A stretch of DNA of 64,000 nt from Antedon mediterranea (taxonomy: Eukaryota; Animalia; Echinodermata), in NCBI RefSeq assembly GCF_964355755.1, contig NC_092671.1:38326304-38390303 (forward strand), given 5' to 3'. The notes beneath the pieces are model-generated. The model was not told where the DNA came from. It saw only the letters and a list, made by a program, of their open reading frames with translations, and did no database searches. Both the position numbers and the translations under genes were made by a program. Of this stretch, positions 27,101-52,800 are shown one piece after another (position 1 is the stretch's first letter; each line of letters starts with the position of its first letter).

Positions 27101-30100
27101 TTTGACCGTGTGTTTGTTTGACCGTGTGTTTCAGTCTATGTTTTACCCTAATACATTTATTTCTATCATGTATTAGTTTTAGTATAGGCCTAGGTGTTTG
27201 TTAGTTTTATTATGTATGGCTTTATTATAGGTATGACCTTATCTTTAGCATTATTTCATATATAGAATATTATCATAGCAGATGTGTTAACAATATTATG
27301 AAAGAAACTCCTGTAAAGGGTGCTGTACCTAAAGAAATAATGGTAGGAAGAAAATCATTTACTGATTCAGAAGACAGTAAGGAGGATGAGATATATGTGG
27401 AACGTCAACCTCATCAGCCCTTTCGGAGAACGAAAGGAACAGATAAGAGACGTTAGAAAACATGCAGAAGCTATAGAAAATGTAAATATTGTAAATAGAG
27501 AGTCTTTAAATGTTTATTACACAAATGCACAAAGTATTGTAAAAAAGATGGATGAACTGAAAATGGATATTGAACTCTACAAGCCACACATTATTGGAAT
27601 TACTGAAACGTGGGGCAAGCAAACAGTAACAGACGGTATACTTTCTATTCCTGATTACGACCTTTTCCGAAGGGATCATGATGGCGAAACCTCAGCAGGA
27701 GGAGTAATGTTGCTCTGTCACAAATCCTTGCAGGCCACTTCATGCTATGTGCTAAATGAGAATCAGTTCAACGAAAGTATTTGGTGCAAAATCAAGTTAA
27801 CATTATATGAAACAATATTGATTGGAGTATCAGGCCCGTATGCAGCATTTATAATGGGGCTGCCAAGGGCCCCCAGTCAGGGTCCAGGGGCCGAAGGCCC
27901 TGCAAAAATTTGCGTTATTTGACGTTCTAAAGACCTATGTAAGACTCTCTGTTGTGGCTTGGGCTAGTTGAACGATGGACACCAGAACTTAACGCTTTCA
28001 TGATGAGGCCAACTCAGCAGGGGTGGCGCCAGGATCTTCCCGACGCGGGGGCTACATTCCCCGACGAGGGGGCTATGCGAGCAAAGCGAGCATCACTAGG
28101 CTGTGGGCCAGGGGCCGCCAAGGGCCCCCGGCGGGGGTCCAGGGGGCGAATCCCCAGGAAGCAACGCGTTCTAGCGTCATTTGAGGTCTTTTTAATCAGA
28201 TTTAGGGTAGCCATTTTTTCCATTTTTTATAATGCATAAATAAAATACTGCGTGCAAAAAAACGATGCGCGTTGACTGTTTCAATCCATATTTTTCAATT
28301 TAAAAAATAAAAGTTCAAAGAAAATTTTGAAAAATAGAGTTGGAGGTCCCGGAAATTGGACTTATTATACTTCAAAACATGAAAAAAAATATATAAGTCC
28401 CTATCATGGGTTGTGACTGAGCTAAGAAATGTTTGAAAAATAGAGATGTTAGGTCCCGGAAAATGTACTTCTTGTTCTTCGAAATATGACCAGCTTTATT
28501 GTTGGGGCTGAGCTAAGAAAATGTTTAAAACTAGAGCTGCAGGTCTTCAAAAAATTGCATTTTATACTTTGGAAACATCAGGCCTAGAGGCTTAAAAAAC
28601 GCAAGCGTAGACCTTTTTCAGTCGGGGAAAAAAGTTTATTCCTCCCAGGTGTATGCATGCATACCATCTGGACTTCCGAGTGGTGAGAAATTCATGACAT
28701 ACAGTTGGAAAATAACACATTACACATTTTGGTCCCTGGATGAAACTTGATATCGCGCGTCTCGACCCAACGTTGAACGATTCGTACAAAGGGATACCGC
28801 CAGACAAGTGCGTACCTAGCTATTGTTTAGTAGTAAGTTAGATCGCTGGCAATAATGAATGCATATAAAGTGCATAATATCACTCTGACGTACTCTCACG
28901 GTCAATGAAACGTCGCGGTTTTCTAGGCGCTGAAGCTAGCTACGAAGTGAACGCGAACGCTTTTTACTGTATATTATATTCCCCGACAAAAAGTACACGT
29001 GTTCCCTGACGTTAAGTTGTCTGTATTTCTCCAGCAAACACTTTACCGCGTACATGAAGCGCTAAGCTATTGCTTGTCGTCACATGATCGACTGCGCATG
29101 TTTTACATCGAGTTTGTAGTCAGTTCAGATTCCGTAATTTAATTACTGGTATTTTTTCATTTTATATTAGCATATTTTTGTTTGTATACCATTGATAATG
29201 TAAATTTTGTATATATACAATGATATTGTCTTTAGTTAAACAAGACAAGAAAAAATACCAACCGAGGAAATAGTGGACCTTTTGGGACTTGGGGGGGGGG
29301 GTGCGTCTGCATCCAACGCACCCCCCCTGGATACGGGCCTGAGTATGTTACCGAAGCTGTGTCAGTAGCTCAAGACAAAACAACAGAGCCCTCAATATAC
29401 TAATCGAGGAATCCATGAAGCAGAATGTAACTCATACTGACTGTTAATGGGAGACTTTAATTATCCCCAGATCAAGTGGGAGAAATATAGAGTGGAAGCT
29501 GAAGGCATAAAGGGAGATGATGCTGAGAGTTTCTACGAAACAAGCCAAGACTTATTTCTACATCAGCATGTAATTGAGACGACAAGACACAAAGAAGGAC
29601 AAAGGCCATCAATGCTTGACCTGGTATTGACAAATGATGAAAGTGCAGTTGAAGAGATACAACATTGTAGCCCACTTGGGAAAAGTGATCATGATGTATT
29701 GTTTTTTGAGTATACTTGTTCAAGAAATCCTATTGGAAGTGATGAGAAAAAATTACGGAAAAGGTGATTATGAGAAACTAAATGATTCATTTGGGAAATT
29801 AAATTGGGATGCTCTGCTTGATGATAAAAGTTGTAACCCGGCATGGGAAACATTTATGGAAATCTACAATGCAGAAACTGAAAAATATATACCTAAGAGG
29901 TCAATGAGAAAGAACATGAAACCTGTATGGCTGAAAGCTAGAATAAAGAAGAGTATAAAGAAGAAACACAAATTATACAAAAAGTACAGACAGACAAACC
30001 AGTACAAGGACTACCTTGAGTACAAGAAACAGAGGAATTTCGCAAGTGCAAACGTGAGAAAGGCACGTATAGAACATGAGCAAAAGTTAATGAAGAACTT

Positions 30101-32504
30101 TAAGAAAAATCCTAAGCCAGTATACAAGTACATTAGGGAACAACAAAAAGTAAAAGAAGGTATAACTAATCTTGTAAAAGAAGATGGAAGTTTGACCGAA
30201 AATGACCAGGAAGCAGTTGAAATGTTGAGCAAATTTTTTCAATCTGTATATACCCATGAACCAGATGGTGACCTACCCCAGTTTGATAGCAGGAACAGCG
30301 ACAACATTCTTGAAAATATTGTATTTTCGGTAGAAGATGTTCAGAAAAAATTAAATCAACAGCAACCAAACAAAGCTCCTGGTCCAGATGGTGTCCATCC
30401 TATGGTTCTGAACCAATGTGCCAGTTCTCTAGCTCATCCACTTACTATCATTTTCAAGCTCTCACTTGAGACAGGTAAATTACCAAAAGATTGGAAGACT
30501 GCAAATGTCACACCAATTTTCAAGAAAGGATCCAAGAAGAAAGCTGAAAATTATCGGCCCATCAGCCTAACATCAATACCATGTAAAGTTTTTGAATCAA
30601 TCATCAAAGACAATGTGCTTGGCTTTGTTAAAGGAAGTAGAATGCTGTCTAGGTGTCAACATGGATTCCTAAGTGGTAGGTCTTGTCTAACAAATTTGCT
30701 ACAAACATTCGAAACAGTCACTGAAGCTCTAGATAGTGGTGAAGATGTGGATATCGTATACCTTGATTATATGAAGGCGTTCGATAGCGTTCCACATCAA
30801 AGACTAATTCACAAGCTGATAGGCTATGGAATATCTGGTAAGACTATAAATTGGATAGCTGAGTTTCTGGCAGGAAGAACACAGAAAGTAATTGTAAGAA
30901 ATACAACATCCAAGCCGGTAGATGTAGTGAGTGGAGTCCCACAAGGATCAGTCCTTGGCCCAATCCTATTCATCCTCTTCATAAACGATCTTCCAGATAA
31001 AATTATCAGCGCAGACTTTAACATGTTTGCAGATGATGCAAAGATTATAAAGACCATCAAAGAAAAATCGGATTCAAGAAAACTTCAAATTGATCTTGAT
31101 AGGGCTCAGGAATGGTCAGAGGACTGGCTGCTAAAATTCAATACCAAGAAATGCGAAGTGCTCCATGTTGGTAGAAAGACAGAGAAATCAGAATATTGTC
31201 TAAATGGAGAAACGTTATTGGCAGTAAACGAAGAAAAAGATCTTGGTGTTATCTTCACTAGCGACTGCAAGCCAAGCCGACAGTGTGCTGCAGCAGCAGC
31301 TAGAGCGACGAATAGTATGAGAACTGTCAAAAGAACATTCAAAAATATTGACAAAGAAAGTTTTCAGGTCATGTACAAGGCATACATCCATCCACATATG
31401 GAATACTGTATACAGTCCTGGTCTCCTTACTATAACAAAGACAAAGAAATCTTGGAGAAGGTGCAGAGAAGAGCTACAAAGATGGTCAAGTCAATAAGTG
31501 ATCTACCATATGAAAAAAGGTTAGAATATCTTGATCTTCAACCATTCGAGACAAGAAGACTACGAGGAGATTTGATTGAAGCTTTCAAAATCACTGGAAT
31601 TCTCTGCCTGAATATGTAATACAAGCCTCTTCAGTGAACATCTTTAAGTCTAGACTTGACAACTATTTTCGGCTAGAAATGGAATCTAATAGGCACTAGC
31701 CTAAACTATTTCCATCAAACATTAAGTGTAAGTGTAAGTGTTTCAATTATGTGTTCTGCCTAAACTTAATTAAATTGAATTTGTTTGTAATTTATACTGG
31801 GTGACCTCTTCAGTCAAAGACTGATCTCCCAGAGGGCCTAGTGGCTGTGTGTACTAGTAAACCGGGGTAACCCCCTACTCGTGTCGAAACATGTACTAGG
31901 TTCTTTAAAGTGCACACGAGCTAGATGTGTACACTGGACCTACGGTTTATAGTCCTTATCCGAAAAGACTTGTTCTACTCTCAGAACCATGGAGCCAGTG
32001 AGCCTCAAACCCTTGAACCCTTGCCGATGTTATTGCTACATAATTACGGTCCCACTGTCTTTACCGCTCGGCCAAATTGATTAATATCATGGTACTTTAA
32101 CCATTGTGTTATTGTTGGCTACTAAAATGTTTAAAGTTTAAAACGGACCAAACATACTTTCTGTGCTAAATTTGTGGTGTAATTTTATTTGTGACAACCA
32201 AGGAAAAATTCAGACTATGAGTTTGACCAAATAAATTGAAATAATCGATTAAAATAAATTAATATTTTTTAAGTAGTTCATATCAGCTGCTGCTTTTACA
32301 GATTTTTTCGAGATAAACTACTTTACAAATAGTACATTCAGCATGTTTCCAAAATGTAGATTAATATTTATTATTCTTTTATTGCAGGAAAGTTTTGAAG
32401 GACAGATGACAGAAAATAATATTGAGATTGGAATTTGTAACGAGGCTGGTTTCCGACGATTACCGCCAACAGAAGTGAAAGATTATCTGGCGTCAATAGC
32501 TTAA
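24135..32504 (+). CDS. PSMA2: Proteasome subunit alpha type-2 (235 aa)
   Basis: Exons 24135-24172, 24717-24926, 25433-25555, 26082-26301, 32388-32504. [25 protein letters not shown]...[13 protein letters not shown]...[10 protein letters not shown]. Confidence 0.97.
25581..25710. repeat. 21-bp tandem repeat (~6 copies) inside a family B MITE
   Basis: (GATATGCCCAAATATGGTAGT)n; explains the spurious ISLPYLG / YHYHIWA ORFs. Confidence 0.9.
26340..26479. mobile_element. Small MITE family D
   Basis: Imperfect TIR AGCTTGGTTCCTACTTGGACACAA...TTGCGTCCAAGTGGGAAACAAGGT; related end at ~48885-48930. Confidence 0.55.
27290..31740 (+). mobile_element. Decayed CR1-clade LINE (APE endonuclease + reverse transcriptase) in PSMA2 intron 4
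   Basis: EN motifs [21 protein letters not shown]; RT motifs [38 protein letters not shown]; C-terminal [14 protein letters not shown] after an internal deletion near 31595; (TAAGTG)3 tail. Frameshift near 29750 and a nested insertion. 5' boundary approximate. Confidence 0.92.
27831..29341. mobile_element. Non-autonomous TIR DNA transposon nested in the LINE endonuclease (hAT5-like)
   Basis: TIR CAGGCCCGTAT...ATACGGGCCTG; 5-bp TSD AGTAT (27826-27830, 29342-29346); removal restores IGVCYRS. Confidence 0.85.
31776..32074 (-). mobile_element. tRNA-derived SINE with Deu/Nin-like central domain
   Basis: Minus strand: box A TGGCCGAGCGGT, box-B-like GGTTCAAG/GGTTTGAG, core GGATAAGGACTATAAACCGTAGGTCC..GCACTTTAAAGAACC..GAGTAGGGGGTTACCCCGG, A/T-rich tail. 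Confidence 0.7.
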
Positions 32505-33004: not shown

Positions 33005-33930
33005 TACAGGGACTTTAAAAAAAAGACCAAATTTTGACCCTTTTATTTTTCGAAATAACTGGTTACAAACACTCTATAAGATGATGGTAACGTATTATAG
33101 GCGCATATATAGCAACATTATTGCATAATAATTGATTTTAAAAAGTGGATATTTTGGCCATTTTTTGATAAAATTCCTGTACAGGGATTTTTTCCAAAAT
33201 TGGGCAAATTTCGACTCTTTTATTTTTTTAAATAACTGGTTACAAACACTCTATAAGATGATGGTAACGTATTATAGGCGCATATATAGCAACATCATTG
33301 CATAATAATTGATTTTAAAAAGTGGATATTTTGGCCATTTTTCGATAAAATTCCTGTACAGGAATTTTTTCCAAAATTGGGCAAATTTCGACTCTTATTT
33401 TTTTAAATAACTGGTTACAAACACTCTATAAGATGATGATAACGCAATATATGCGCATATATAGCAATATTATTGCATAATAATTGAATTTTAAAAAGTG
33501 GATATTTTGGCTAATTTTTAAAAAAATCCCTGTACTATAGTACAGGGATTTTTTCCAAAAACGACCAAATTTCCACCCTTTTATTTTTCGAAATAACTGG
33601 TTACAAACACTCTATAAGATGATGATAACGCAACATATGCGCATATATAGCAATATTATCGCATAATAATTGATTTTAAAAAGTGGATATTTTGGCCATT
33701 TTTCAAAGAAATCCCTGTACTATTACAGAGTTTTTTTCCAAAATTGGGCAAATTTCGACTCTTTTATTTTTCGAAATAACTGGTTACAAACACTATAAAT
33801 TGATGAAAACGCAATATATGCCAATATATAGCAATATTATTGCATAATAATTGATTTTAAAAAGTGGATATAAAAAAATGACAAAATTTCGCATAATATT
33901 TTGGCTATTTTCGAAAAAATCCCTGTACTA
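33005..33930. repeat. ~180-bp tandem satellite, ~5 copies, between convergent PSMA2 and collagen 3' ends
   Basis: Recurrent AAATAACTGGTTACAAACACTCTATAAGATGATG and TTGCATAATAATTGATTTTAAAAAGTGGATAT about every 176-184 bp. Confidence 0.9.
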
Positions 33931-34836
33931 TAGTATATAGATTTTGTACATCTGTTAGTATAACTGGTTACTATGACTTGGGTCCTAGACACGATAAAAA
34001 GATGATTGTCAATAAACAGTAAGTATGGGCTCTTCAAGAGAAGATTTTATTTCACAAATTCAGTTGGTTGACTTTTTAAAAAACTGACATTATTGAAAGT
34101 GTTTAAAACAGGATTGGATTTGAAGACAGGTTTGATTACACAAGTCTCTTATATTCATTAACATACAACTTTGAGGTCACTTGATGACATAGTGCTGAGG
34201 TCAAAGTTTAAGAGTTTTATGATACAAAAATATAAAAATATATTCCAACAACAGATTTCCTAAAGTTGTATTAACTGTCTTCAACTACGCAGTATTTTGA
34301 AAAAGTAAGCAAATATAAATTATTATAGTGATTGCATAGCTTTTGATCTACCTATGAGAATACAAGTTGTATATTTTCAATTAGTTAAAAACACTTTTAA
34401 AATAATTATATTGGAAAAACTAATTTGAATAAAATACTGAATCTCTCTAGCATGATTGATGGAAAAACTGTATTCTACTACTGCACAATCTATAAACTAC
34501 TCTGCCAATGCAGCGTGAGATGGTAAAAAAGTCACTGTAAACCATAGCCTGATTTCAGCTCTTTCTAGCCAATTAGCACCATTTAATCCATTGGGGTAAA
34601 ACTAGGGTATTAATCCCCGTATTGTTACCATTCACAAGTTAAAAAGTTACATACAAAGATTATTTTTTTTTTATTAATTTTTTTTTATTTAAAAGCACCA
34701 TGTTAAAATCACTTAAAATATGTACGTCCCTAAACAATCTAATCAATTCGGCTAACTGAGACTCTTACTGACGCAGAAAGATCATCTCCTCCTGTAATTG
34801 ATGGTAGTGGTCAAAAGAGTCTGGTTAATTTGAAAT

Positions 34837-37800
34837 CTATGAGAAGCAAACTGCTCCAATTTCGAGGCCGAATTGTTGGTCTTGACTTCCGATATCAGCA
34901 ATTGCTACATCAATGATGGGTAGTCGGGTGTTCTTCTTTGTGTTATATTCAAATACAGTCTTGGCCCAATCACCGGTAGGTTCCTACAAGAAATAAAGTA
35001 TCAATATTTAGTAAATTCATTAAACAACTGATTTTACATAAATTCCCAAAAAGGAGACTTTTTACATCTGCAAAATGTAACAACTTGTAACCAGGTTTGC
35101 ATAGTGTGAAGAAAATTAACTTAAGTTTGAATAAAAAGTGAACTTGCATTTTGTTCTGTACAATAAATTTAAAAGCTTTTGGAAACTTACTTTGCAGCCA
35201 TCTTCAAGTACTGAGTATCGGAATTGTTTCTTGCCATCGGCGGTCAATTCAATTTCGCTGCTGGTCATCAATTTGATGGATTTGTCCAATTCATCATCAG
35301 CATCAGCATATCCGACAGAGTTCAAGCAGTTGAAGGTGATGTTCTGTCTGGCGTTGCTAGTAAGAAGTCTCAAGAAAGCCATCTGGGCTTGGTCGGCGTA
35401 TGCGAATTGGTATCCTCCCTTCATGTCACTGAAGTAAACGCTCTTGGCTTTGCCAAGGTAGTATTGGGCTCGTGGTACGGTTCCCTCTACCGGGGCTACG
35501 CAAGTCTCCATTGTTTTCTTGTCACAGTATACTTCAAAGGCATCTGATGAGCATCCCTGGTTAGGATCAATGAAGTATTTGCCTACAGGAGAAGAAGATA
35601 ATAATATATTATATTAATTTATTTATTTAAGTACTATAATATTAATATTAATAAAACACTGTTCTGTCAGGCTTGCTGTAATATGTATTTGCTTAATCAA
35701 CAGTGTAGCATGTTTAGCTCTGTCTACACTATCAAACTAGTTTTGCAAATAAAGGGTGATATGGTAGTGATATGACATCATCATGTCCATATAAGGGGTG
35801 GAGGCAGAAAAGCTTGTGGTGTCTTACCGCTTGGGAGGTCTGGGTAGCATTGGAAGAGGTCTTTGCATGTTCTTGCTGGACTAGCCTTGGTTCCAAGTGG
35901 AGATTTGATGGCCTGGATCTGGTAGTTCAATGATCGGAGAGCTCGGAGGATCTCAACATCTGAAAGCTCAACATTTTCATCATTGGCCTGATCAGCATAC
36001 TGAAAGGTAATAACATTATTTGTATTAAAAACAATGGTACATTATATAGTTAATATATACTTAGATTTGTCTTTTCACATTCTTCGAAAACATTTAAACA
36101 ATCCATAACAATTTCTTTACATGTATAATATCTATTACTACACAATCTATAAACTAAATGAACTAAGCTACAGTTTTAGTATGTTTCATAAGTAAAACCT
36201 GTATAAGGGTAGGTGTTAATTACAATCACTTTATTTCACACAACTCCATGTTACAACACAGAAGAGGCCAGGGGCGATCATGCTTCAAACCCCTAATTTT
36301 TACAAAAACATTTTGTAGGAATAGTTTCCGTACACATATACAAGGTTTGTGAAACCTAGTCAAATTTTGATTGCAATGACAACCCAAGGTTTATAGAAAT
36401 TATAAAAAACTAAAGCAGTAGCACAATATTTTAAAACATTGCTTAAAATATCTACTCTAAGTGTACTACTACAAACATTAAAATATTGCTTCCAATTTTA
36501 TTTAACATTAATACAATAAAAACAGATTAAATCATATGTATAAGAGATATGTACAAAAAATTACAGTGTAACAAAAACTATCTAGAATACGGTACCAGCA
36601 ATGACATGAATTGGGACAATATAGCGTACACTTGTGTTAAGCTCGACAACAATGCACAGGTCACATATTAGGGACATTTATAAAACTTACAGGCTGGTCC
36701 CCATATAGATACCCTGATGGATCAGTGTTGCCCTTGGTTGAACTTGACGCCAATCTCGCTAAGTATGCAGATGCATATGCATTCTAATTTTATAAGTATA
36801 CAGGAAAAGAAGGATAGGTTAATATGAAGTATAAAAATTTATAATCCGATACTTACGTAATATTCTCCCATACTGGGTCCCTTTGGTGCGCTCTGTGGGT
36901 AGACTGGGGCTCTGTAACCGTACTAAAAAAATCCACCATACATGTTATATTTGTATTTCAGTATAATAACATTTAAGCCCAAAGAGTATGTAGTTATAAC
37001 TGCAGCATATTAGTACATATCTATTCATTACTATTGATGTTAAAACATAAATATATGTATAATATGTATATAGTAGTAAATTATAATTAAAATTATCTCG
37101 CCATTTCTTTTGGGAATATATATATTTATAGTATAAATTATAATAATACTTTACATAATAGAAATATTTAAATGTAATATTAAAAAAAAAAATAATAAAA
37201 ATATCCAACTTACAGCATCTCCTGAGGCACCCTGAAATCAAGCAAAAACAACAATTATTTAAAAAAAATACAATAACATATAATATGGTTTTCAATACTT
37301 AAGCAGTTTTTGAATAAATACTATGAACAATTATGAAAAATGAAACTTACTGGTGGACCTGGAGGTCCTGGTGGACCAGCTGGACCTGGGGTACCATCTG
37401 CACCTCGTGGACCACGGGCACCAGTGCTACCAGTTCGTCCTTGTTGACCTGGGTTACCAGCTGGACCGCTGCTACCTCGGGAACCTGGTGTTCCTCTAAG
37501 ACCTGGGGATCCAGACTCACCAGATGAGCCAGTTTCTCCTGGGGGTCCTTGTGGTCCTGGAAGACCTGGAGCTCCCATCATACCTGGATGTCCTTTGTGG
37601 CCCTAAAGAAAAATAATTGTTTTTATTACCAAAAATATCTTCAAAATTTCTATGTCAGTATTTTTATAATAAATTGTAATAGTATGCTTATGTTAAACAT
37701 AATACAGCAAGAACAATATAAATAATAAAGATAATATTGAAAATTAGGTAGACTTACAGCAGCACCTTGAGCGCCTCTAGCACCTTGAGCTCCTGGGGCA

Positions 37801-40800
37801 CCAGCTGGACCCTAAATTGGAAAAAACAGTTTTAAATTTTAATATTTGAATTTCTAAAAAAGGTGTAAAACATTTATAAAATATAATTTAAGCAAAGAAA
37901 TCTGTTTTATACAAACAATTTGACTTTGTATTCATAGTTTATTGATGAATGTGTAAGAATGATTTTTGCACTAAACCCAACTCGCTAATTAAACAAGTAA
38001 GATTGAAGTAAATACATACAGCTGGACCAACAGCACCACGTTCACCAGATGGACCGGAAGGTCCAGCAATACCTGGTGAACCACGGTCACCTCGTTCACC
38101 ATCAGATCCTTGTGATCCTGGGGCACCTGGTGGTCCGGCAATTCCTGGGGCTCCTGAAACTCCTGGTGCACCAGCATCTCCCTTATCTCCTCTGGCTCCT
38201 TGTGGTCCTGGTTGTCCATCATTACCTGGTTCACCCTAAAGTACAAAACAAAAAAAGTGAACATCTTATCTAACGTCAAGTCAATTTAAGAAGTTAAAAG
38301 TAAAGTATTTGCATCTGACTAGGATATAACATGGAGGAATAACAACAACGGCAACAGCAATAACAACATAGATATTTATAATATCCAAAATGCAAACTTA
38401 CAGATTGTCCTCGTTCTCCTTGCATTCCTGGCATACCAGCTGGACCTGCAGGTCCAGTTTGTCCTCTTTCTCCAGCAGGTCCTTGAGTACCTTGGGCACC
38501 ACTATCTCCAGACATACCTGGAGCACCTGGAAGACCACGTACACCAGCTGGACCTGGCATACCCTATAAATTAAAAGGAGCAATTATTCACTAAACTTAA
38601 ATTATTATCACTAAATCTGATTTAAGGCCTACTATGCAATCTAAAATATTGAACAGTACACCTCTTCTGCGTGTCCTGCAACATTTACTAAGTAAAAGAA
38701 AATATCTACATTAAATCAGGGAGATGTAAAATAAAAATTTTACATCTCCCTGATTAAATCAATCAATAGAGCATTTTTAATATAGTAATAAATATGTAGT
38801 ATACTTACCAAAATACCTGAGGGGCCGGATTCACCTGGTCTTCCTGGGGAACCAGTCAAACCCTGAAAAGCAATAAACATTGAATTAAGTAAAACAAAAC
38901 TGCACTTCCTTGACTATGCACTTAAGTATTATAAAAAAATTTAGGATTATGTCAATAATTATTAAAATATATTTCAAAATGTCATTTTTTTGTAATACTA
39001 CTAATAATACTGTAAGTATTTTAAATACATACTTGTGGACCTGTATCTCCTTCATCTCCCTTGTCTCCTTCTTGGCCTGGTGCTCCTGGGGCTCCAAGAC
39101 CACCTGGTCGTCCTGGGCTACCTGAATCTCCACGGGGTCCCTACAACAAAATGTACATGTAAATTAATAGTTTTCTAACCTTGTCATTAACAAGAGAATG
39201 TCTTTAGAATTGGTAAGCAAGGATTTTTAATAAACCAACGCATAGTGCCAGTTGTACACCTTATATCAACCTCTGTTGATGATGATGAGGGTTTTTTTTT
39301 TATGGTGAGGGGGTTCTGTGATGGCTAGGTAGCTCTTTGATGGGAAGAAGGCCCTGTTGTGGTGAGGTGATTATTTGATGACAAGGTTTCTCTTTGAGGG
39401 CGAGATCGCCCTGTTATGGTGAGGTGGCTATTTGATGAGAAGGTTTCTCTTTGAGGGTGAGATGGCCCTGTTATGGTGAGGTGGCTATTTGATGAGAAGG
39501 TTTCTCTTTGAGGGTGAGATAGCAAGAAACGACTTCAGAGTGTATTACTTACGGGTTGTCCATCTTTTCCTGGGGAACCAGTAGCACCAACAGATCCAAC
39601 AGCTCCCTGATAACAACAATTACATAAATCATTACTGATGTAATAAAATATACAGTAGTTAATAATCTTAGTAATGAAATACAATCTACCTAACTGTGTA
39701 ATGAAATTTTAACTTACGGAAGGTCCTTGTGGGCCGACAGGTCCCATTGGTCCTGGAAGTCCGGCAGCACCCTGTAAAACATTAAAAGATTGAATCGCAA
39801 TTAAGTTTCCACAGTCAAAGAGGGAAAATTGATATATTAGTAATAGAACTCGTAAGTACAATGAATATTGATATTAATCAAACATATCAGTTTGTAATTT
39901 GAATTTTATCTGTAAAATTAACTAAATCAATCAATCAAATATACTTGTGATTAATATACTTACAACTGCGCCACCTTCACCTCTATCTCCCTTGGGTCCG
40001 GCAACACCTGGGGCTCCCTGAAATCAAAACATTTATCATTGTAAAATAAAAAACATTTCTAGATTTATTATAGATTTATTATACAATTTTAGGTAAAAAG
40101 TTTGGCATAAAAAAATATCTAGACCAAAAGGTTTTTTCAACATATTTAATATTATATCTTGGGGTGGGTCAAACTTAAAGTCTTTCTGACTTATATGACC
40201 CTCCCAAAATGATTACTTCATTATATTTTTTATCCTGTATGTTATTATATTGTGGAAATAAATTGAAATTGAAATTACTGTTTTTGTTATAAAATGTGAT
40301 TTTTTTATATTAGTTATATACTTTACCTGGGCACCTGGGGCACCTGATTGTCCTGATGGTCCTGATGGGCCAGATTCTCCACGTTCACCAGTTGCTCCAG
40401 AGTCTCCCTTTCGTCCTTGTGCGCCAGCTGGACCCTATCATAGTTAAAAATTTAGAAGATTATATTATGGATAATGTTGCTATTTTTTGTAAAATTCTGT
40501 ACAGTAAAAAAGAATGGTAATTAACTATTTGTTTTTACTGTACAAAATGATATAATTTATAGGTTGAAAAAACTAAACTAAAACAATGCATTATGTTATA
40601 AACATTTAAAAATTATTAAATTATACTATGTAATCACAAACAGCATACACTACGAGATTTTATTATGTAAAAAAGCATAAACTACAACATTATACTAAAG
40701 CATAAACTACAACACTATACTAAAGCATAAACTACAACACTATACTAAAGCATAAACTACAACATTATACTAAAGCATAAACTACAACATTATACTAAAG

Positions 40801-43800
40801 CATAAACTACAACATTATACTAAAGCATAAACTACAACATTATACTAAAGCATAAACTACAACATTATACTAAAGCATAATCTACAACATTATACTAAAG
40901 CATAAACTACAACATTATACTAAAGCATAAACTACAACATTATACTAAAGCATAAACTACAACACTATACTAAAGCATAAACTACAACATTATACTAAAG
41001 CATAAACTACAACATTATACTAAAGCATAAACTACAACATTATACTAAAGCATAAACTACAACATTATACTAAAGCATAAACTACAACATTATACTATGT
41101 AAAAAAAGGAAAATTACAACATTATAATAAGTAATCACAAAAGAACAACAAAGTATATTACAACTACTTTCATCATCAGAAGTTCAACAAAAAATAGTCC
41201 TCAAACATCCTCATCCCTAAACTATGTTCTATGTATAAGCAACACAAGCTGACAAGATTTCTGATATAAATTGTTATCTTACTAAGAATTATATATTCCT
41301 CTAAACAAAGCAAAGATAGCAAAAAACCTAGATATTTGTGAGACAACTAAAAGCGCAATAAGAACATAGGTAAACTACAGGTGTACTTGTTAGCAACATA
41401 CGCAAACTGCAACGGGTGTACGATACATTTAAACTAGGCCATCCACTTGTTAGCAACATACGCAAACTGCAACGGGTGTACGATACATTTAAACTACGCC
41501 CTCACACTTGTTAACAACATACGCAAACTGCAACGGGTGTACGATACATTTAAACTAGGCCCTCACACTTGTTAACAACATACGCAAACTGCAACGGGTG
41601 TACGATACATTTAAACTACGCCATCCACTTGTTAACAACATACGCAAACTGCAACGGGTGTACGATGCATTTAAACTACGCCCTCACACTTGTTAACAAC
41701 ATACACAAACGGCAATGGGTGTACGATACATTTAAACTAGGCCATCCACTTGTTAACTTACGCGTTTACCAGTGAAGCCTTGACGGCCTGCTTTTCCTTG
41801 TAAACCTGTTTCACCCTGAGGGAACACACGAAGAAAGAGATCAAAATAAAGTGAACTTAAAATACATAATAAATCTTAGTTGACTTACTGGTGGTCCCAT
41901 CATACCAGTCTGTCCCATTGGTCCTGGGGCACCGCCTTCACCCTGGAGAACAAAGAGTCAATGTTAATTAGTTGGATGTCAATCAATATAAGTAAGATAT
42001 GAAGACTTGAGAATTAGGATGAAATGGTTAAAAGAAAATAGTGAAGTAAACAATGCTTGAAATGAATAGTATGAGGAAAAAATAAAAGAAAACCTGGTGA
42101 GATAACAGGACATGAATTAAGATGAATCTAAAGAAAATGTAAACAAATGAAAATTAAATAAAAATTAAATAGATAATTATTGATAGAAAGTATGAAATAT
42201 TAGTAAAATTCAGGAAAATAAAATATGTTTAAATAAGTTAACAGTAAGCAATGATTTACACTAAACAAAAATTTATAAATATATTTAATTGTAAAACGCT
42301 TAAATCTATATTTCAAACTGAATTGGATAACTAAACAAATTCCAAAGCATACTATTAATATTATATTATTATAAAATCATTACAAATACAAGTAAAACAT
42401 TTGTAACCCAAGACCAATATTTAAAACTAAAACATGGAAAATTATTTTAGCAATTGAAATTGAGCCCCAACAAAACAAAATCTATCTACATTTCATGGTT
42501 AAGTTTACCTGTTCTCCTCGGCTTCCTGGGGCACCATATGGACCTTGTTCACCAGCATCTCCCTTCTCACCTGGAAGTCCCTGGGCTCCGTTTGGTCCCA
42601 TTGGTCCAACTGGACCCTAAAACAATTGTAAAGGTAAAGCAAACTTTACATTCTATGTTCACTATCAAACTATTGTTATTTGTTTTTGATATTCTTTAAA
42701 TAATTAATGTTCTTTGATTAGTAGTTTTTTTAAATGTTCAAAAACTGAAGAGCTTTAAAATAGGTATCAATATAATACTGTTACATATATATGTAAATAA
42801 TATTTGTATCTATTTCTTTGATTGATGTTATGATGATAATTATTTATACAAAATAAATTTGTTTACTAACTCGTTCACCAGCTTTTCCTGCTGGACCTGC
42901 TGGTCCTGAAGATCCTCTTTCTCCTTGTGGTCCTCTACCTCCTGCAATACCAGCTGGACCTCTTTCTCCTTGTACACCACTCAAACCTTGTGGGCCTGGT
43001 TCTCCTCTTGCTCCGGATGGACCTGGTGCTCCTTTCTGGCCATCAGATCCTGAGCTACCTGTTCGTCCTCTTAGACCAGCAGCTCCTGGTGATCCAGCAA
43101 CTCCTCGTTCTCCTGGGGAACCTCGTTCTCCTCTTGGTCCTTGTGGTCCTGATTGTCCAGTCTCTCCCTTAGCACCACCTTCACCTGGGGGTCCAGCTTC
43201 ACCTGGGGCACCTCCTGGACCTGGGCTTCCCATGAAACCTTGTTGTCCTGGAGAGCCTGCTGGTCCTCTTTCTCCTTGTGGTCCGGCAGAACCGGCTGGT
43301 CCTGGTGGTCCTGGGTTTCCAAGTTTACCTGGCTCACCCTAATAATTTAATTAATCAAAGCAATAAATTAAGAAATCAAATAGTATGTATTGGAACAACA
43401 AATGTATACAGTATCATATTAATTGGAGATAAATTTATAAAAAAAAATAACTTACTCCTGGTCCTGGCGCACCTCGTTCTCCCTGTGGTCCTTCTGGGCC
43501 AGAATCACCCTAGAAGACAAATACTATTTTATCAGTAATACTGAAAACATTTATAAACATATATGAATACATTAACAACAAACAGAAGGAACTCTAAAAC
43601 ACCAATAACAATGTAAAACAAAGATATATACATGTTGTATCAAAGTATTTTAAAATGTATTGGTTTACTTACAACATCTCCCTTAGATCCTGGAAGTCCA
43701 GCAAGTCCAGCTGGTCCTCGTTCTCCTTGTGGTCCTGGGCTACCTGGGCGACCATCATCACCTCCTGGACCTTGTGGTCCTGGCTTTCCATCTCGTCCTT

Positions 43801-46800
43801 CCTTTCCTGGAGATCCTGGCATACCACGTGGTCCTGGAATACCGGCTTCACCTTGTCGTCCTTGGTCTCCTTCAGCTCCTTTCATTCCTGGTTCTCCTCT
43901 GGCACCACGTTCTCCTTGTGGTCCAGCAGATCCTGGTGCACCTCCTGGTCCTGGGGCTCCACTTGGTCCACCTGGTCCTCGTTCTCCTTGTGGTCCACTT
44001 GGTCCTTGAGGTCCTGTAGCACCAGTTGCTCCTCGTTTGCCATCATCACCAGCATCACCTGGGGCACCAGCTGGGCCACCTTCTCCTCTCATTCCCTGTG
44101 GTCCCATCTCACCTCGTTCTCCTTGAAGACCTTGTGGGCCAGTATCTCCTTTGCCACCAGCAGCTCCTGGTGCTCCAGCGGGTCCTGGTGTTCCTCGTGC
44201 TCCTTGGAATCCTGGTTGTCCTTGTGCTCCAGCGGGGCCAAGTTCACCCTTAGCTCCAGCAGCTCCATCTCTTCCTGGAACTCCAGCTTTTCCTGGTACA
44301 CCTGGTTGTCCTCCTGGGCCTCGTTCACCACGGGCTCCCTGTGATCCTGGTTGTCCTCTAGCTCCTTCACTGCCAGCCTCTCCTTTAGCTCCTCCTGGTC
44401 CTGGGAATCCTGGAGATCCAGTGGCACCAGATGGACCCTGTTAAAACAAAATTTAAAATGCATTTAAAGGTGAACAGGGTTATGTTGTAGCTATCAAGTT
44501 GGAAAACCATTATTTTGATATCATATCAAATCAAAATGAAATGAAATAATGAATATTTTAAAAAGAAATGAAAAAATACACTTACTGGTGAGCCTTGGCT
44601 TCCTGGGGCACCATCTTCACCTCGGGCACCCTATTATAAAGCAAATTATATACATAAGTCAGCTACAAATGTTATACAAATCAACACAATAAACATAAAT
44701 ATTTTATATATATATATAATTCATTTATTGGAAAGGCTAAAGAAATGAGAGTAAGTTACTTACTGGGGAACCTGAAGCACCTGATCGACCTCGTTCACCT
44801 GGAGCACCACGGGCACCCTAGAAGATAAAAAAGTACAATGTTATACAAAACAAGAAATCTATATCTTATTTAAATTTATTACAATATTTGTATGTAAATT
44901 TTATTCTGTCCCATGTATGATAGGAATTCATTCTTCTTTAATATAAAGGTTAAAGGTTAAAGGTTAAGCTAATATTTGGATACTAAACTATTTATTAGTT
45001 ATTTTATTCAAAATGTTTGTATTCTATCTAAATTGATGGAAAATGACTCGATAAGAGATAAGTTCCAGTTTCACAACTTTAATGAAGAGTAATGTAGAAC
45101 TTACTGGGGCTCCTGAAGCACCTGGGGCGCCTGATTCACCATCAGAACCTCGTTCACCTGCATTTCCTTTGTCTCCCTTGGCGCCTCTCATTCCCATGAA
45201 ACCCTGAAATATAGCAATATTAAAATTAGCACAGAACACAAGAATTTACAAAAACAAGAAAAGCTATAGTTACAGAGATGAAACAAACTTGGATCTTTCT
45301 TGCGTTTTTTTTTATAAATGAATATCATTTTAATCGTACTATTATTATTTATTAGTTGAATTTTGTATTATTTGTCATTTGAACATAATTTAATTGAATT
45401 TGCGCAATATAAATGAATAGATTATTATTATTATTAAAATACACATTTGTATAAGTATGACTCAAACCATTTTGTGTTACTTACTCTGTGTCCCTTTGGT
45501 CCGCTCATTCCCATTGGTCCTGGCATACCACGTGGTCCCTTTGATCCAGATGGACCCATTGGTCCTGGTGAACCATCTCTACCATCATCACCAGAGTCTC
45601 CTTCACGTCCCTGAGGTCCTGGTGGTCCCATTGGTCCGGTGGTTCCCTAAAATGTCAACAGCATATATCAATAAACATACACACTTTAGAGCTTGCTTAT
45701 ATGCACTATATAAGAATGAACTATTATCATTATTATTAAATACAAAAAGGGGGATATGAAAGCCAAAGTTATATGGAAAATTAGTTTTAACAATGTGTCT
45801 TCTTAATGATCATAAGACTGCTATGTTGAAAAGGCTGCTGGAAATGGTATTTAAAACTCATAACTTTATTAGATATTAAAACTGAATAATACTTATATCT
45901 TTCAATTATATGTCTTACTTTGAATTAAAATGTGTGTAGTAAACGAATAAAAGAACAAATAAACTTACAGGTTGTCCAATATCACCAGATTCGCCAGATG
46001 GTCCAGCAATACCTTGGGGTCCCTACAATGCAATTACAGAATACATAATTATAGTATTTAATGTAAGACAACATTTTTATTTTTATTTTCATTCATTTAT
46101 GATTTATTATATATATAGTAAATATAAAATAGTTGTAGTTGTTTAATATTACAATCATCACTAAAAGAAAAAAAAATGTAAATTGTAATACTTACTCGGA
46201 TACCAGCTGGTCCTGGGGGTCCTCGTGGGCCTGGGGGTCCAGCCTAGAGATTTAATGAATTGTATTATTTATAAAAATAATCTTTTTAAAAATGTTTTGT
46301 TTTTATTTAATAAAGAACAAACTGTCCAGATTTTTTATGAAATAAGAAATCAAATGCAATAAGCTTTTTAAAAAGGGGTCAAAAGTAAAATTTAAAATTT
46401 AGAAGAGAGTGATTGGTCCAATTTTGTAAACTACAGTAAATTTATTACAAACTGATTAAAATCATAAAGAAGTAAAATCATAGTCAGATTAATATTATAT
46501 ATAATACAGTATATTATCTTGTTTAAAATCTGGTATTCTGGACAGATAAGTCTTTAGAATTTAAATTGTTATTTTAAGTGTTAAAACAGTTGAATATCAT
46601 TCACTTAGTTCAAACAAATTAAACATTGATTATTGGATTGGAAAGATTAATTGATGCAAAGAGTCATCATTTACTAAAAAAATATTATAAAAGTTGGATA
46701 AGTGTAATATGAAAATAAAAAATTGCAATTGTGTTAAAACATGAAGCAGTTAGTAAAGTGAGTAGAAAGCTAGGCAGTTAGGGCAAAAATGGCAAAAGGC

Positions 46801-49800
46801 TTCCTACTTTCTAGGAGTTTTATGTGGTTATTAGATCAGATCAGATCAGATCAATCTATATTGTTTTGGCCACAGTGATGCATTTGCCATTTTCCCCCTA
46901 ACTGAGGGGCATACACGTAATGGTCTTAGATCAATAAGATCTCATTTATATAATTTTTCTACAATTTAACAGCAATGATTATTATTTTTAATGCAATACT
47001 AACAACTCCAGAAAAACAAGTCTATTTGACATGCGTTCATTTTGAAGTTTTCACTAAATGTTTAGAAATTATGGAAATAATATTAGTGTTAATGATAATA
47101 TTTAATGGTTCCAGAAGAAAAAAGTTTAAATTTCATTATTAATTGTTATGCAATTTAACTGCAATGATTATTCTTTTTTTCTTTAACACACAATTCCAGA
47201 AAAAAGTCTATTTGACATGCGTTAATTTTAAAAGTTGAATTTATTGTTAAATATCTATAATTTGTTGTAAAACCTTAATGAATTATTGTAATTTGTTGTC
47301 ACCTAATCTAAATCTAAGAGTGATGAATCAAAGATTGCACAAAAGGAGAAGGGGGAAATCCCGAATCTCGTCTCCCTGCTTCCATCCGGACATTTCCTTA
47401 CAATATTTGGTTGCATCTCTTTTACTTATCTGATATTCCAATGCACTATTCATTCATTCACAAGACAAATCCAAGCACAAGTAAATGGGTTAGTAGCGTT
47501 ACAAACACTTACAACTTGAGCCTGTGCGTAGCCGAGGGCACCACCGTACATTGGGCCGGGTCCTTTGTATCCGAAACCACCTTGGGCGGCGCTAGCGACA
47601 ACCTAAGGCCGTGTTTAAGAGGGGGAAGCAACAAAAATAAAACGGTGAATACATAGTTTACACAACAACTGACTTACAGTAACGGCACCTAAGTTTCCGT
47701 AACCAGCATAACCGGATGGGTATGCGGGTCCTTTATATTGGCTGGTCTTTCCAACGGTGGCTGCGGCAACTACTTGTACCTGTAATACAAAGCATACTCA
47801 TCTGCAATATACTGAACTCTGACTACAATTATCCCGAGAGTCAACAGAAATATTCTGGACAGCTAATGATTATTCAATTTTTTTTAACAGTTTAAAATTT
47901 GTTTGTGAATTGTTGATTCTTATTAATAATTTAATAACTATTTTATTTATTTAAAAATACAATCAATGATATTGATTTGAACATTTTACGAATATATTAA
48001 AACAAATACATCGATAACTTTTATATTGTATTGTATTTAAATGGTTTACAAATAAAATAAAATAAAAATTGTTTTCTTTGTTCTACCTCTCCTGGTGGTC
48101 CTGGTGGTCCTGGACGTCCTGGGTTACCTGGTGGTCCTGGGAGACCATTCAAACCATCAATACCATTGTCTCCCTATTAAAAAAAAAAACAATACAATGT
48201 CATTTTGATTAAAAGTGTAAAATTGCAATAAAATATTGTTTGCCCATTAAAATTTGTTTTAAAATCAACATTGCAACTCTAGATCTATTGAAGGTGGAAA
48301 CCTGTAATAAAAATGAAATATTAAGATTAAAATATTAAGATTAAAATATTGTAATTAAAAAGCCATAAGGTGTATTTGTACTTACTCTTGATCCTGGGTT
48401 ACCAGAGGAACCTCTTGGTCCTGTAGATCCACGTCCTCCCTAGAGTCAAAGAAGCTTTCAAGTTAGCACAAAAACCCCACAAACATAAACCCTAGCAATT
48501 TGTTACCATTACATTCGTTGCAAAAACCTAAGTGTTGTTTCTTATTAGATTTGTAAAGTTTAATATTATATTAAAAATATTGTATAAACTTATAATATTT
48601 ACATACAGTATTTTAAATTTTGCTGAATTAATTTGCTTAATGGGAATTTTCTTGAGGACTCTAAAGTATTATTATCTTACTTTAATACCTTTAATGTATT
48701 ATACACTTTTAGTTGAATTAGGCATAAATAAATAATAAATATCTAACATATATTAAAAACGCTTAGCAAAGAAATGGCATGACTATGTGGAATATCTTAT
48801 TCTAGCTAATCATTAGGACTACTATCGCAAGATGCTTTTACACACACGCGGCTAATCCATCGCTTGAGATTGGTCAAACCACTTTGCGTTGCGTTACGTA
48901 CTGGCGTTGCGTTCTAGTGGGAACCAAGCTTAAGCAAGAGTTGCTGCAACATTCAATCAGGTCAGTCAGTGTTGACTTTAATACCACAACTATGTACAAT
49001 TGTACTTTAAAACATGATTGTTTTAATCATATTACAATTGTAAATAGTTGTAATATACATGACACATGGATGGAAATTAAAGAAATATTTGAATACAATT
49101 TAGAAATCTGTATAACTAGATAATATAATTATAAATTTAAATTTTTAATTAATTTAAACCTGATGTGAATTAATACATTATGCACTACTTATTTTTATCT
49201 TGGACTTTTTCTCACAGATTAAGTAACAATTATTTGATCGTTCTAATGGATGTTTTGGGACAATTTAATTGTTTTTTGTTAATCAAAATTCCATCCATGT
49301 GACAATAATACCAATTGTTACCAACTTACTGGAGAACCTGGAGCTCCTGGTGGTCCAGCAGGACCCATTGGTAGCTACATTAAGTAGGAATAAAAATAAG
49401 AAAATACAAATTAAATAACAATGTATTAAACTCACCGCTGGTCCTGGTGGTCCAGGTGGACCTTGGACTGGTTGAAACTGTTAGAAAAGATGCAAAAACA
49501 TAATATGTTTGTCCCAACACAGATCAAAATGATAAAACCCCATCAGATAAATGTTTGACAATTGGAAAAATTGAAGAATTTTATAATTAGAATTGCACTG
49601 TAGTTTATTTAAAAGTGTACAGTATGAAATTTTCCAAAACATATTTTATTACTTATTAGTTAAAATTCCAGTTCAAGTTTGAATTTTATTATCAGAATTG
49701 CATTGTGGTTTATTTTAAAATTATTTGAAAATTTTCCAAAACATATTTTATTAATGATTAGTTAAAATTCCAGTTCAAGTTTTAATATTTCAATTTATAT

Positions 49801-52800
49801 TCAAAATAATTTTTTTTTGGATTCTAAAATTTTGATCTGTCATGGAATTTCCTACTTTTTGACACTCAAGGTAAATGCACTATTTTAATCTAATTTTATA
49901 TTGTTGATTAGTTAGAAATTATAATTAATATTTAAAATTAACGCCTTGAGTGTCAAGCTACAGAGTTCTTGAGTGGATGCGGAATGTGCAGATGAATGTA
50001 ACTCGTTGACTGACCCCTTCATCTTTATCAATAAATAATAAACAGTGTCTCCTCTTAAGTATTTTCCAATATTGCATTTTTGTACATTTTAAATGATTTT
50101 TTGGTTTGAATATAGCCAATTATTGCATATTATTGGATATTAAAAATTGGAATACTGTCAGGAGTAGACACTTTACAATCAAACTTATCATTAATTTACT
50201 ATTTAAACAACTAGAAGCCTACATGGTCCTATGATACACTATATAACCTTACCACTAGAGTAACTATTTAGGCAATGCTATTGTATAATAGATTATAGTA
50301 CAATTTGAAATGGTTTATTAAAGTAGTACAGCATTTTAAATTTCGTCCACCATTTTAAAATGTCTAGCACTCCTTTCACTAAATGAGCAAAACTTTGGCG
50401 ACACTCCTAAGTTTGATATGAAATTGGTATAGTGCCACCCCCCCCCCCCCCACTCCCTCAAAGATGACTTCAATAGCATATCCTTTACAATGATTTCCTA
50501 TAGATTACTCTATTTAAATACTGTATTCAAATTCTAACATTGATAATCGTTCCTTCAAACTGGTTATTTCCTAAATTGATAAACTAATGTTATATTTATT
50601 TCATACTAAGATTTCATTAATCAAATATTTTTAATAATTTATTTAAAACTAATTTCTGCAAATAATTATTATTTAAACAAAATCCAAAAGTGATAACAAT
50701 TTTAAAAGCAGGGTTTGAATTTTGGTGATTTTTTCTCATTTTTAAAGATTTTCTCAACTTCACCATAAATTTCCAGTATGTCACTGACATATTTGTTTAT
50801 ATTTGTTTGAAAATTTATATAATAAAAAATGAATTTGTTGTATTAATTCTAAACTTTTCAATAGAAAAATTATTTGCAGATTACATATCTAGCCCTATAC
50901 ACATTTATAATTAATTATTTTAAGTTTGATTTCTCCTAGAAATATACCATTAAAAATAAATAGTCTCTGAATTAAAATATTATTAAAACTAAACTAATCC
51001 TAAACTAGGAATGGTTTTTGCTAATTACCAAATTAAATGCTTTTTCACTTAATAAAATTCAAATAATATCGCATTGGAGCTTTTTGTGAATTATAAAGCA
51101 GCAGGCTTATAATAATGCTGGGCAACGAAAAATATATAAATCAGCATTTAATTTGTTTACATTTAATATCCTACTTAAATTACTCATTTAAAAAAACCAA
51201 CAGTGTTGATGTTTATGATATAAATTTCATTAAATTTTGCTTTTTCAAAAATTTGATATTTAACAATAATGTGGAATGATTTTGTAACAATTTATTTGTG
51301 GTTATATGGTATTGGATTTAATAGTCGATATAAATTTAATAATGAAATATTTACAATTTGAGTGTAATACGGTACAGAGTACTGTATAAATCTAAAAAAA
51401 AATATATTAAATTTGAGTGGAATATTTGTTTTAAAAAAACATCAACAGCTGCCGATTTCAAAACGGATAAAAACGAAGGGGTTCTTAATCGCAGAAGTTG
51501 CACTCACTGCACTTCCAAGTTCTGGAACTTCGCCGGGCTCGCCCTTTTGGCCCTTAGGGCCGGTTGGGCCAGTTTCTCCACCAGCGTCTCCTCGACGCGT
51601 ACTACCCTGGAATATTAATATAATATAAGAAATTAGTACAAAGAATAAATCAACTTACTCCCCCTGGGAACATATTGTTGAGATCAGCAGGCTCTCCCTT
51701 CTGGCCCTTTATGCCAGGTGGTCCATCGGGCAATACCTGATAATATATAAAAGCATTGAAATACATAGAATACAACATGTGTAATTATGATAATGATGAT
51801 AATGATGTTGATAATATGAGAATGATAATGACAGTTTAAAAATATGATCATGATGTTGACAATAATATGAGGAGAATTACAATCACAGTTTAAAAATATG
51901 ATAATGATGTTGATAATATGAGAATGATAATCACAGTTTAAAAATTTGATCATGATGTTGACAATAATATGAGGAGAATTACAATCACAGTTTAAAAATA
52001 TGATAATGATGTTGATAATATGAGAATGATAATCACAGTTTAAAAATATGATCATGATTTTGACAATAATATGAGGAGAATTACAATCACAGTTTAAAAA
52101 CATGACAATCATGTTGATAATTATATGAGGAGAATTATAAATTACAGTTTAAAAACATTCATTATAATGAATAATATGTGATATATACATTTGTAAACAA
52201 TTGTATATTAACATTACATTATGTATTTTAGATACTCAAATTAATCATTTATTTTTCTTTTAATATTGTTCAATTCAATATGAATAATAACCTGGGAAGG
52301 GCAAGTATTCCTTGCTCTTCCCAGGTTTTAATTAGCATGTTACCCTTCAAACTTACCTCTATAAATAGTTGAATAAACAGGAATCGGCAGCAATGGAGAG
52401 AGAGAGAGAGGAAAAATAAAATAATGGTTAAAATCAACATTTTCTATTGAAAATGCCACTGTATCCCTTGAGAGCAAAATGATACCTCATCGGACTACTC
52501 AGTATAGTCAGATGAAGTACCATTTGAAGTGTGTGATGACAATACCTGTTAATACATCTTAAAACATAGAGGAAAAAAAAAACATCTCTCAAAAAAGTCA
52601 GAATGTTTTACCTATTGAAAATAACTTACACTGCAAAAAAGAAGAGTCTCACAGCAAACTGCAATCGAAGATTGCAATTTGCTGCTAAACCATAGTCAGA
52701 ATATACATAAACATTTTGGTCACATAATAAATTTAACTAAAAGATCTTAATACATTGTTTTCTTCTACTCGACTTAAACTTACGACTAGCAGGAGGTGCG

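Follow-up and report, generated by a model that had tools for sequence, protein, structure and literature searches.

Fibrillar collagen chain diversity normally comes from paralogous genes, with the telopeptides and the major helix treated as fixed parts of each chain. A 64,000-nucleotide (nt) stretch of the genome of the crinoid Antedon mediterranea (contig NC_092671.1, positions 38,326,304 to 38,390,303; hereafter the window) raises the question of whether a single fibrillar collagen gene can exchange these parts by splicing. The gene lies on the minus strand and spans from beyond position 64000 to a stop codon near 34836, and the window holds its 3' part. An earlier note on this DNA proposed that the gene contains five tandem pairs of mutually exclusive exons, from which up to 32 chains, or two coordinated chain types, could be made. 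Our analysis indicates that one exon of each duplicated pair is probably spliced in, which would give a limited number of chains, partly coupled in their exon choices, with equal helix length and different telopeptides.

Tandem exon pairs with short spacers

The five pairs lie where the earlier note had placed them (Table 1), and all ten exons are stop-free, phase 0-0 and bounded by AG and GT(A/G)AGT ends. Within-pair spacers measure 52 (A), 61 (B), 75 (C), 73 (H) and 73 nt (D), as first described. Of the 50 introns mapped in the collagen gene, none of the other 45 is as short, their lengths running from 111 to 2030 nt. A random draw of five introns would return the five shortest once in 2,118,760 times, a figure to be read knowing that the pairs were partly noticed through their closeness. 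In all five pairs, a retained spacer either disrupts the frame or introduces a stop. The likeness between partners is clear for A, where none of 5,000 shuffles reached the alignment score, and modest for H (16 of 5,000) and C (210 of 5,000).

For mutually exclusive exons in human genes, the available portions of two reports place the steric limit on donor-to-branch distance at about 50 nt (PMC5740500, PMC7969005). Candidate YTNAY branch adenines lying 15 to 60 nt from the acceptor are, in all five Antedon spacers, 9 to 48 nt from the upstream donor. Spacers of 52 to 75 nt are likely too short to be removed, so that partners could not be joined to each other. Decay of frameshifted messages was ruled out as the enforcer of exclusion because all exons are phase 0-0, which leaves steric hindrance as the simplest mechanism.

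Helix length bears on the H pair. The major helix is uninterrupted, with a glycine in every triplet and two KGH cross-link sites. With one H exon it has 338 Gly-X-Y triplets (the 18-nt last exon counted), or 1014 residues, and the KGH lysines lie 843 residues apart. Both H exons together would give 344 triplets, 1032 residues and a spacing of 861, and neither would give 332 triplets and a spacing of 825. In rat alpha1(I), K87 is seen in the sequence record, and the second cross-link lysine, which we take to be K930, gives a spacing of 843. The helix is canonical only with one H exon.

Partners also differ in RGD and charge, as the earlier note had reported. Among the pair exons RGD occurs only in A2, and H1 has a net charge of -1 with four prolines, compared with +3 and no proline in H2. 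For this gene H2 is among the most basic segments of its length: of the 333 18-residue segments of the helix with H1, only 7 have a net charge of +3 or above. By collagen I geometry the place of H2, at 2.66 to 2.73 D, is presumably in the gap zone; from its charge and this place, glycosaminoglycan binding by H2 would be a reasonable guess. Relative to H1, H2 retains 12 of 12 glycine-codon GG letters and shares 14 of the 42 other letters (33%), and the chance of keeping its six glycine codons under neutral drift is about 1e-3 to 2e-6. The intact glycines, the lack of a stop and the strong splice sites, kept despite this divergence, point to purifying selection.

Tandem arrays of 25-, 61-, 102- and 177-nt units occupy positions 40672-41097, 41385-41757, 51796-52155 and 33028-33871. 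The 61-nt array stops 4 nt downstream of the H2 donor and might affect the use of H2.

Table 1. Exons of the collagen gene in the window, pair exons first; positions are those of the window
Feature	Position	Strand	Evidence
A1, first minor-helix exon, long-propeptide form	51736-51659	-	21/26 residues equal to orthologue model (by eye); no A1 joint among those listed
A2, alternative first minor-helix exon, RGD, short-propeptide form	51606-51508	-	A2-B1 joint in X1, X2, X4
B1, minor-helix exon	49477-49436	-	B1-m1 joint over B2 in X1, X2, X4
B2, alternative minor-helix exon	49374-49330	-	12/15 residues equal to orthologue model (by eye); X1 contig end
C1, N-telopeptide, cross-link-type lysine	47779-47678	-	C1-helix joint over C2 in X1, X4
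C2, alternative N-telopeptide	47602-47513	-	m2-C2 contigs over C1 in X2, X4
H1, 54-nt helix exon, triplets 207-212, form found spliced	41942-41889	-	joints in X1, X2, X6
H2, alternative 54-nt helix exon, basic, proline-free, putative use	41815-41762	-	intact Gly codons, strong splice sites
D1, C-telopeptide, form found spliced	36922-36857	-	joints over D2 in 4/4 runs
D2, alternative C-telopeptide	36783-36691	-	24/31 residues equal to orthologue model (by eye)
SURF-type N-propeptide, 14 phase 1-1 exons, 16 module-sized units	63818-52784	-	same modules in LOC117103165
Candidate 2-nt microexon (AG)	52358-52357	-	pyrimidine tract and AG/AG/GTAAGT
Constitutive minor-helix exons m1, m2 (54 and 87 nt)	48087..48439	-	joint in 4/4 runs
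Major triple helix exons	37214..46243	-	reading frames and contig joints
18-nt last helix exon	37231-37214	-	present as letters between joints, 4/4 runs
C-propeptide (COLFI), three exons	34836..35999	-	Pfam PF01410 and mapped exons

Splicing in contigs and in a crinoid orthologue

Ten public runs cover the stretch; six are presumed RNA, and five were used as contigs (X1, X2, X3, X4 and X6). These five have no RNA label on record and were taken as RNA since their joints fall on GT-AG exon ends. Region 41760-51790 was assessed in X1, X2, X4 and X6, with 15 of 26 joints listed, and region 35700-37650 in X1, X3, X4 and X6, which come from three studies, with both of its joints listed. Positions 39300-41760 and those from 51796 upward (long tandem repeats) fall outside the mapped contigs, and joints from H to the next exon and from SURF exons through the microexon to A appear as loose ends only. 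Contigs are graph paths rather than molecules, and rare and equal-length variants get lost in them. Runs X2 to X6 carry other organism codes but show 0 to 1 differences from the window in long pieces, and we dropped them as evidence of cross-species conservation.

Within this scope, spliced contigs skip a partner at all five pairs. Joints A2-B1 and B1-m1, with B2 skipped, are present in three of the four runs (X1, X2 and X4). C1 is joined to the first helix exon over C2 in X1 and X4, and single contigs running A2-B1-m1-m2-C2 skip C1 in X2 (record 12) and X4 (record 16); X4 contains both C forms spliced. The exon before H (h10) is joined to H1 in X1, X2 and X6, and the loose end of H1 equals the start of the constitutive exon that follows, with H2 skipped, in X1, X4 and X6. 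The helix, the 18-nt exon, D1 and the C-propeptide are joined with D2 skipped in all four runs of the lower region. No partner-to-partner joint was found among the 15 of 26 listed joints of the upper region or the two of two of the lower.

We then compared the gene with LOC117103165 of Anneissia japonica, an entry in the supplement of PMC10381214 that appears to be a close, non-identical orthologue with the same modules, helix and C-propeptide. Its model includes a single member of each pair (A1, B2, C1, an H1-type exon and D2). By eye, 31 of the last 32 residues of C1 are equal in the two species (A1, B2 and D2 are given in Table 1), and the A. japonica H segment equals H1 at 12 of 18 residues and H2 at 8 of 18. 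Four exons besides H1, namely A1, B2, C1 and D2, are therefore conserved in a second crinoid. Contigs, helix length and this one-exon-per-pair model together support the mutual exclusion proposed in the earlier note. Use of both members of a pair is seen for C, with both forms spliced, and comes through the orthologue model for A1, B2 and D2; H2 shows no sign of use in the contigs or the model. Spliced use is seen directly for six of the ten exons (A2, B1, C1, C2, H1 and D1), and spliced or orthologue-model use for nine, H2 being the exception.

Weaker traces come from contig ends and depths. An intron contig of X1 ends 29 nt into B2, and like ends lie in the spliced exons C2 and m1. D2 appears in X1 only as a low-depth unspliced contig that starts precisely at its first base. 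H2 has no contig cover in X1, X2, X4 or X6, which is not evidence of silence, since contigs drop rare and equal-length variants. Leftover depth in X1 is about 360 for A1, 420 for B2, 1550 for C2 and 5 for H2, and D2 reaches at most about 5% of D1. These depths are compatible with an A1-B2 path beside A2-B1 at 1020, as a hint only, since depths of contigs are no guide to the ranking of gene parts, and an overlapping contig upstream would account for the A1 value just as well.

The telopeptides were also compared by eye with a subset of the entries in the PMC10381214 supplement, which may not list every crinoid gene. Among the entries compared, SURF/1-alpha/2-alpha-like chains number one of the four A. 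japonica fibrillar entries, two in S. purpuratus and three in P. miniata. C2 follows the pattern that 1-alpha chains of sea urchin, sea star and sea cucumber have in their N-telopeptides (an ASAQ-like start, KG, and Y-x-QA near the end). C1 has features of 2-alpha-type chains, KGPAY as in S. purpuratus and ATV and YKGP as in a holothurian chain. D2 resembles the holothurian 2-alpha-type chain and partly the P. miniata 1-alpha. One crinoid gene may thus be the source of chain ends for which other echinoderms have paralogous genes.

Apparent N-propeptide coupling and the likely chain repertoire

Upstream of the minor helix the earlier note had overlooked 14 SURF-type exons and a likely 2-nt microexon. 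The SURF exons encode repeated four-cysteine modules ahead of the minor helix, a feature described for sea urchin collagens in the available text of PMC2852846; a Pfam search returned no family for the three of three modules tested. Phase is 1 where the last SURF exon ends, and A1 and A2 both begin in phase 0; a 2-nt AG exon would turn the one phase into the other ahead of either partner. The same letters would yield a glutamine that is present at this junction of the A. japonica orthologue, and X2 and X4 contigs carry two extra letters ahead of A2 that equal the microexon. The microexon likely sets the reading frame where the SURF exons meet the minor helix. Taken by itself the motif is weak evidence: a pyrimidine tract followed by AG, 1 or 2 nt and GT also occurs at 52630 and 50254 on the minus strand. 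Used as exons, these two would break the frame; they could be chance occurrences or sites of a recursive type.

In X4, what precedes A2 is neither A1 nor anything else in the window, which implies that this transcript skips every SURF exon of the window, as in the short form of sea urchin 1-alpha. Given that A2-B1 follows this SURF-skipping leader and that the orthologue model joins SURF-A1-B2, the A and B choices look tied to the N-propeptide, with SURF-A1-B2 as a long form and leader-A2-B1 as a short one. C varies in X1 and X4 beside joints of H1 and D1 only, which makes a single switch for all five pairs unlikely. The repertoire is likely a few chains, neither 32 nor 2, as judged from contigs that cannot phase molecules.

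We therefore favor a model in which A and B would be chosen together with the long or short N-propeptide, C would switch the N-terminal cross-link context, H1 and D1 would be the default, and H2 and D2 would be minor or restricted to tissues or stages. Lysyl-oxidase cross-linking and the fibril surface could then be tuned with the D-period register unchanged, and the crinoid gene would by itself provide the variety of chain ends for which sea urchins, sea stars and sea cucumbers use separate 1-alpha and 2-alpha-type genes.

A first alternative is that only A, B and C are live and that H2, and in Antedon D2, are dormant duplication relics kept harmless by the short spacer. Contigs do join over H2 in three runs and over D2 in four, and the orthologue model has the H1 type. 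Against this stand the six glycine codons, absent stop and strong splice sites that H2 keeps despite 14/42 identity elsewhere, and the identity of 24 of 31 D2 residues with a second crinoid, in whose model D2 is the exon used. Moreover, equal-length bubbles such as H are typically dropped by contig assembly. We consider the relic explanation unlikely.

Five independent choices, giving up to 32 chains in the Dscam manner, are improbable, and the earlier note overstated the repertoire in this respect. Every pair is in frame by itself, C is used both ways within X4, and joints beyond those listed, together with popped contig bubbles, could hide other combinations. Yet A2-B1-m1 is an unbroken contig in three of four runs, no A1-B1 or A2-B2 is among the joints listed, the orthologue model has the complementary A1-B2, and D1 alone is spliced in four of four runs. 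Dscam1 has several mutually exclusive exon clusters in one gene; unlike it, Antedon has pairs rather than large arrays, and its choices look partly coupled and skewed. Dscam-type independent choice at each cluster is not what we found, as A and B appear coupled and only H1 and D1 are spliced in the runs used.

The other proposal of the earlier note, that all pairs switch together, seems just as doubtful. It would produce a short 1-alpha-like A2-B1-C2-D1 chain and a long 2-alpha-like A1-B2-C1-D2 chain, which would form heterotrimers. The orthologue model is exactly A1-B2-C1-D2, contigs of X2 and X4 run A2-B1-C2 with D1 also in X4, and the ends of the holothurian 2-alpha-type chain look like C1 and D2 by eye. 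X1, however, splices C1 and covers C2, yet joins D1 over D2 and H1 over H2, and X4 holds both C1 and C2 but D1 alone; C1 must therefore often accompany D1. Ordinary consecutive exons with short constitutive introns, or cassettes sometimes included together, would preserve the frame, all exons being phase 0-0, but partner skipping at all five pairs in the runs used, the helix length and cross-link spacing that a double H would break, and the one-exon-per-pair orthologue contradict them, and we give this explanation almost no credence.

Several observations weigh against the model we favor, in which one exon per pair is spliced into a small chain set. Support for the chain forms is at the level of DNA, contigs and a gene model. 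Among the joints listed in the runs used, none leads into or out of H2, A1, B2 or D2, and region 41760-51790 has 11 joints and 117 loose ends beyond those listed. The phasing of A2-B1-C2 in X2 and X4 rests on contig paths, not single molecules; the branch points are motif candidates and the steric limit is vertebrate-derived; and the A. japonica evidence comes from a gene model whose helix contains a gap. Telopeptide likeness was judged by eye on short peptides rich in Tyr, Gly and Ala, where convergence is possible, and the D match is mixed, D1 resembling both S. purpuratus chains as well as the sea cucumber 1-alpha (by eye). Finally, partner likeness does not exceed shuffles for B (853 of 5,000) or D (3,483 of 5,000). 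These two are called pairs because of position, a shared Gly-X-Y or KG motif, and RNA joints, and not because of alignment score.

The locus, its precedents and its meaning

The C-propeptide matches the Pfam profile COLFI (PF01410, E 3.1e-40). Judged by eye from the supplement alignment, the gene is likely an A-clade collagen with a 1-alpha-like helix; the helix KGH motifs are as in sea urchin and sea star 1-alpha, unlike the KGW of the sea star 2-alpha-type chains (by eye). A protein search with a C-propeptide exon found no near-identical echinoderm orthologue, returning three matches at 43-46%, and in a second such search every full-length match among the best 150 of 632 was under 50%. Two metagenome scans did not find the locus. 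Very long fused helix exons lie at 44437-43673 (765 nt) and 43338-42871 (468 nt) on the minus strand, and imply many intron losses relative to the 54-nt pattern. A scan of seven long introns of the gene revealed no additional hidden phase-0 exon.

Converging on the collagen gene is a proteasome alpha-subunit gene (Pfam PF00227) at 24685-32501 on the plus strand, whose mapped exons lie about 500 nt or more apart; its last intron holds a LINE-like element with endonuclease and reverse transcriptase (27347-31616). Farther away are three copies of a 31/61-nt repeat array (7303-7475, 10067-10239 and 19011-19182), one of them inverted, which are likely mobile-element ends, and a 247-codon open frame (2420-1680, minus) that ends in a C2H2-like zinc-finger pattern and has no Pfam match at E 0.01.

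Vertebrate fibrillar collagen splicing, according to the earlier note, is confined mainly to the N-propeptide; COL11A1 exons 6a/6b fit that description, and COL5A1 exons 64A/64B, which lie in the C-propeptide, had been left out. In the portions available, the former are described as mutually exclusive and within the N-terminal variable region (PMC7558312), and the latter are named as a splicing event (10.1101/2025.10.06.680821). Like these, the Antedon gene has alternative exon pairs in a fibrillar collagen; unlike these B-clade genes, as far as those sources describe them, it has pairs in the telopeptides and major helix as well. Mutually exclusive exons within a collagenous domain have a further precedent in exons 9/10 of Caenorhabditis elegans let-2, alpha2(IV) collagen, which are similar to each other and stage-switched (PMC2119826, available text). 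That case, as described there, concerns a network collagen IV with one pair and a helix interruption, whereas the Antedon gene is fibrillar, and its five pairs include both telopeptides and an exon of uninterrupted helix.

With sea urchin 1-alpha the Antedon gene shares a short form with the minor helix only, a putative long SURF form and KGH motifs at both helix sites; the available text of PMC2852846 mentions no duplicated minor-helix, telopeptide or helix exons, and there a separate 2-alpha gene exists. As for mechanism, OGDH exons 4a/4b (PMC7969005) and 57 human clusters (PMC5740500), as far as the available text goes, likewise combine a short spacer with a donor-to-branch distance under about 50 nt. 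They differ from the present case in that the Antedon branch points are predicted and that five pairs sit in one structural-protein gene.

Our literature search turned up no fibrillar collagen described as having alternative exons for a telopeptide or the major helix, with most subscription papers and the original sea urchin papers outside its scope. Splicing in the N-propeptide of sea urchin 2-alpha is reportedly known, going by a title in a reference list. The main text of an echinoderm matrix review does not mention splicing, and in the portion available of a crinoid long-read paper (PMC11861897) no passage on collagen was found. Mutually exclusive exons were thus known before in collagens IV and XI, and swappable telopeptides were not found in the literature searched; genome annotations may already list these isoforms.

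The sea urchin trimer has the composition (1-alpha)2 2-alpha. That splicing stands in for paralogous chains, as the earlier note suggested, receives some support from the likeness of C2 to 1-alpha and of C1 to 2-alpha-type telopeptides (by eye), with the mixed D pattern as the part that does not follow. The telopeptide pattern would fit the separation of splice forms after gene duplication, with one of the ancestral homologous exons retained in each paralogue (PMC4494069); that model, in the text available, was built on vertebrate genes with curated alignments, and the Antedon match was made by eye only. We speculate, tentatively, that the ancestral echinoderm had one A-clade gene splicing between two N-telopeptides and two C-telopeptides. 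Crinoids would have kept it, building mixed trimers, and the 1-alpha and 2-alpha genes of other echinoderms would have arisen by its duplication, with one exon set each. Splicing of the telopeptides and of the basic helix segment would then set the cross-link partners by tissue.

One gene that swaps both telopeptides, which carry the cross-linking lysines, and has a second version of one helix segment at unchanged helix length would offer a natural test of how telopeptides control cross-linking and fibril mechanics on an identical helix. The likely 2-nt microexon would add a further unusual case of splicing. The exon pairs could also serve as markers of isoforms in the ligaments of crinoids and in other mutable collagenous tissue, and the gene is a candidate living intermediate for the origin of paralogous collagen chains.

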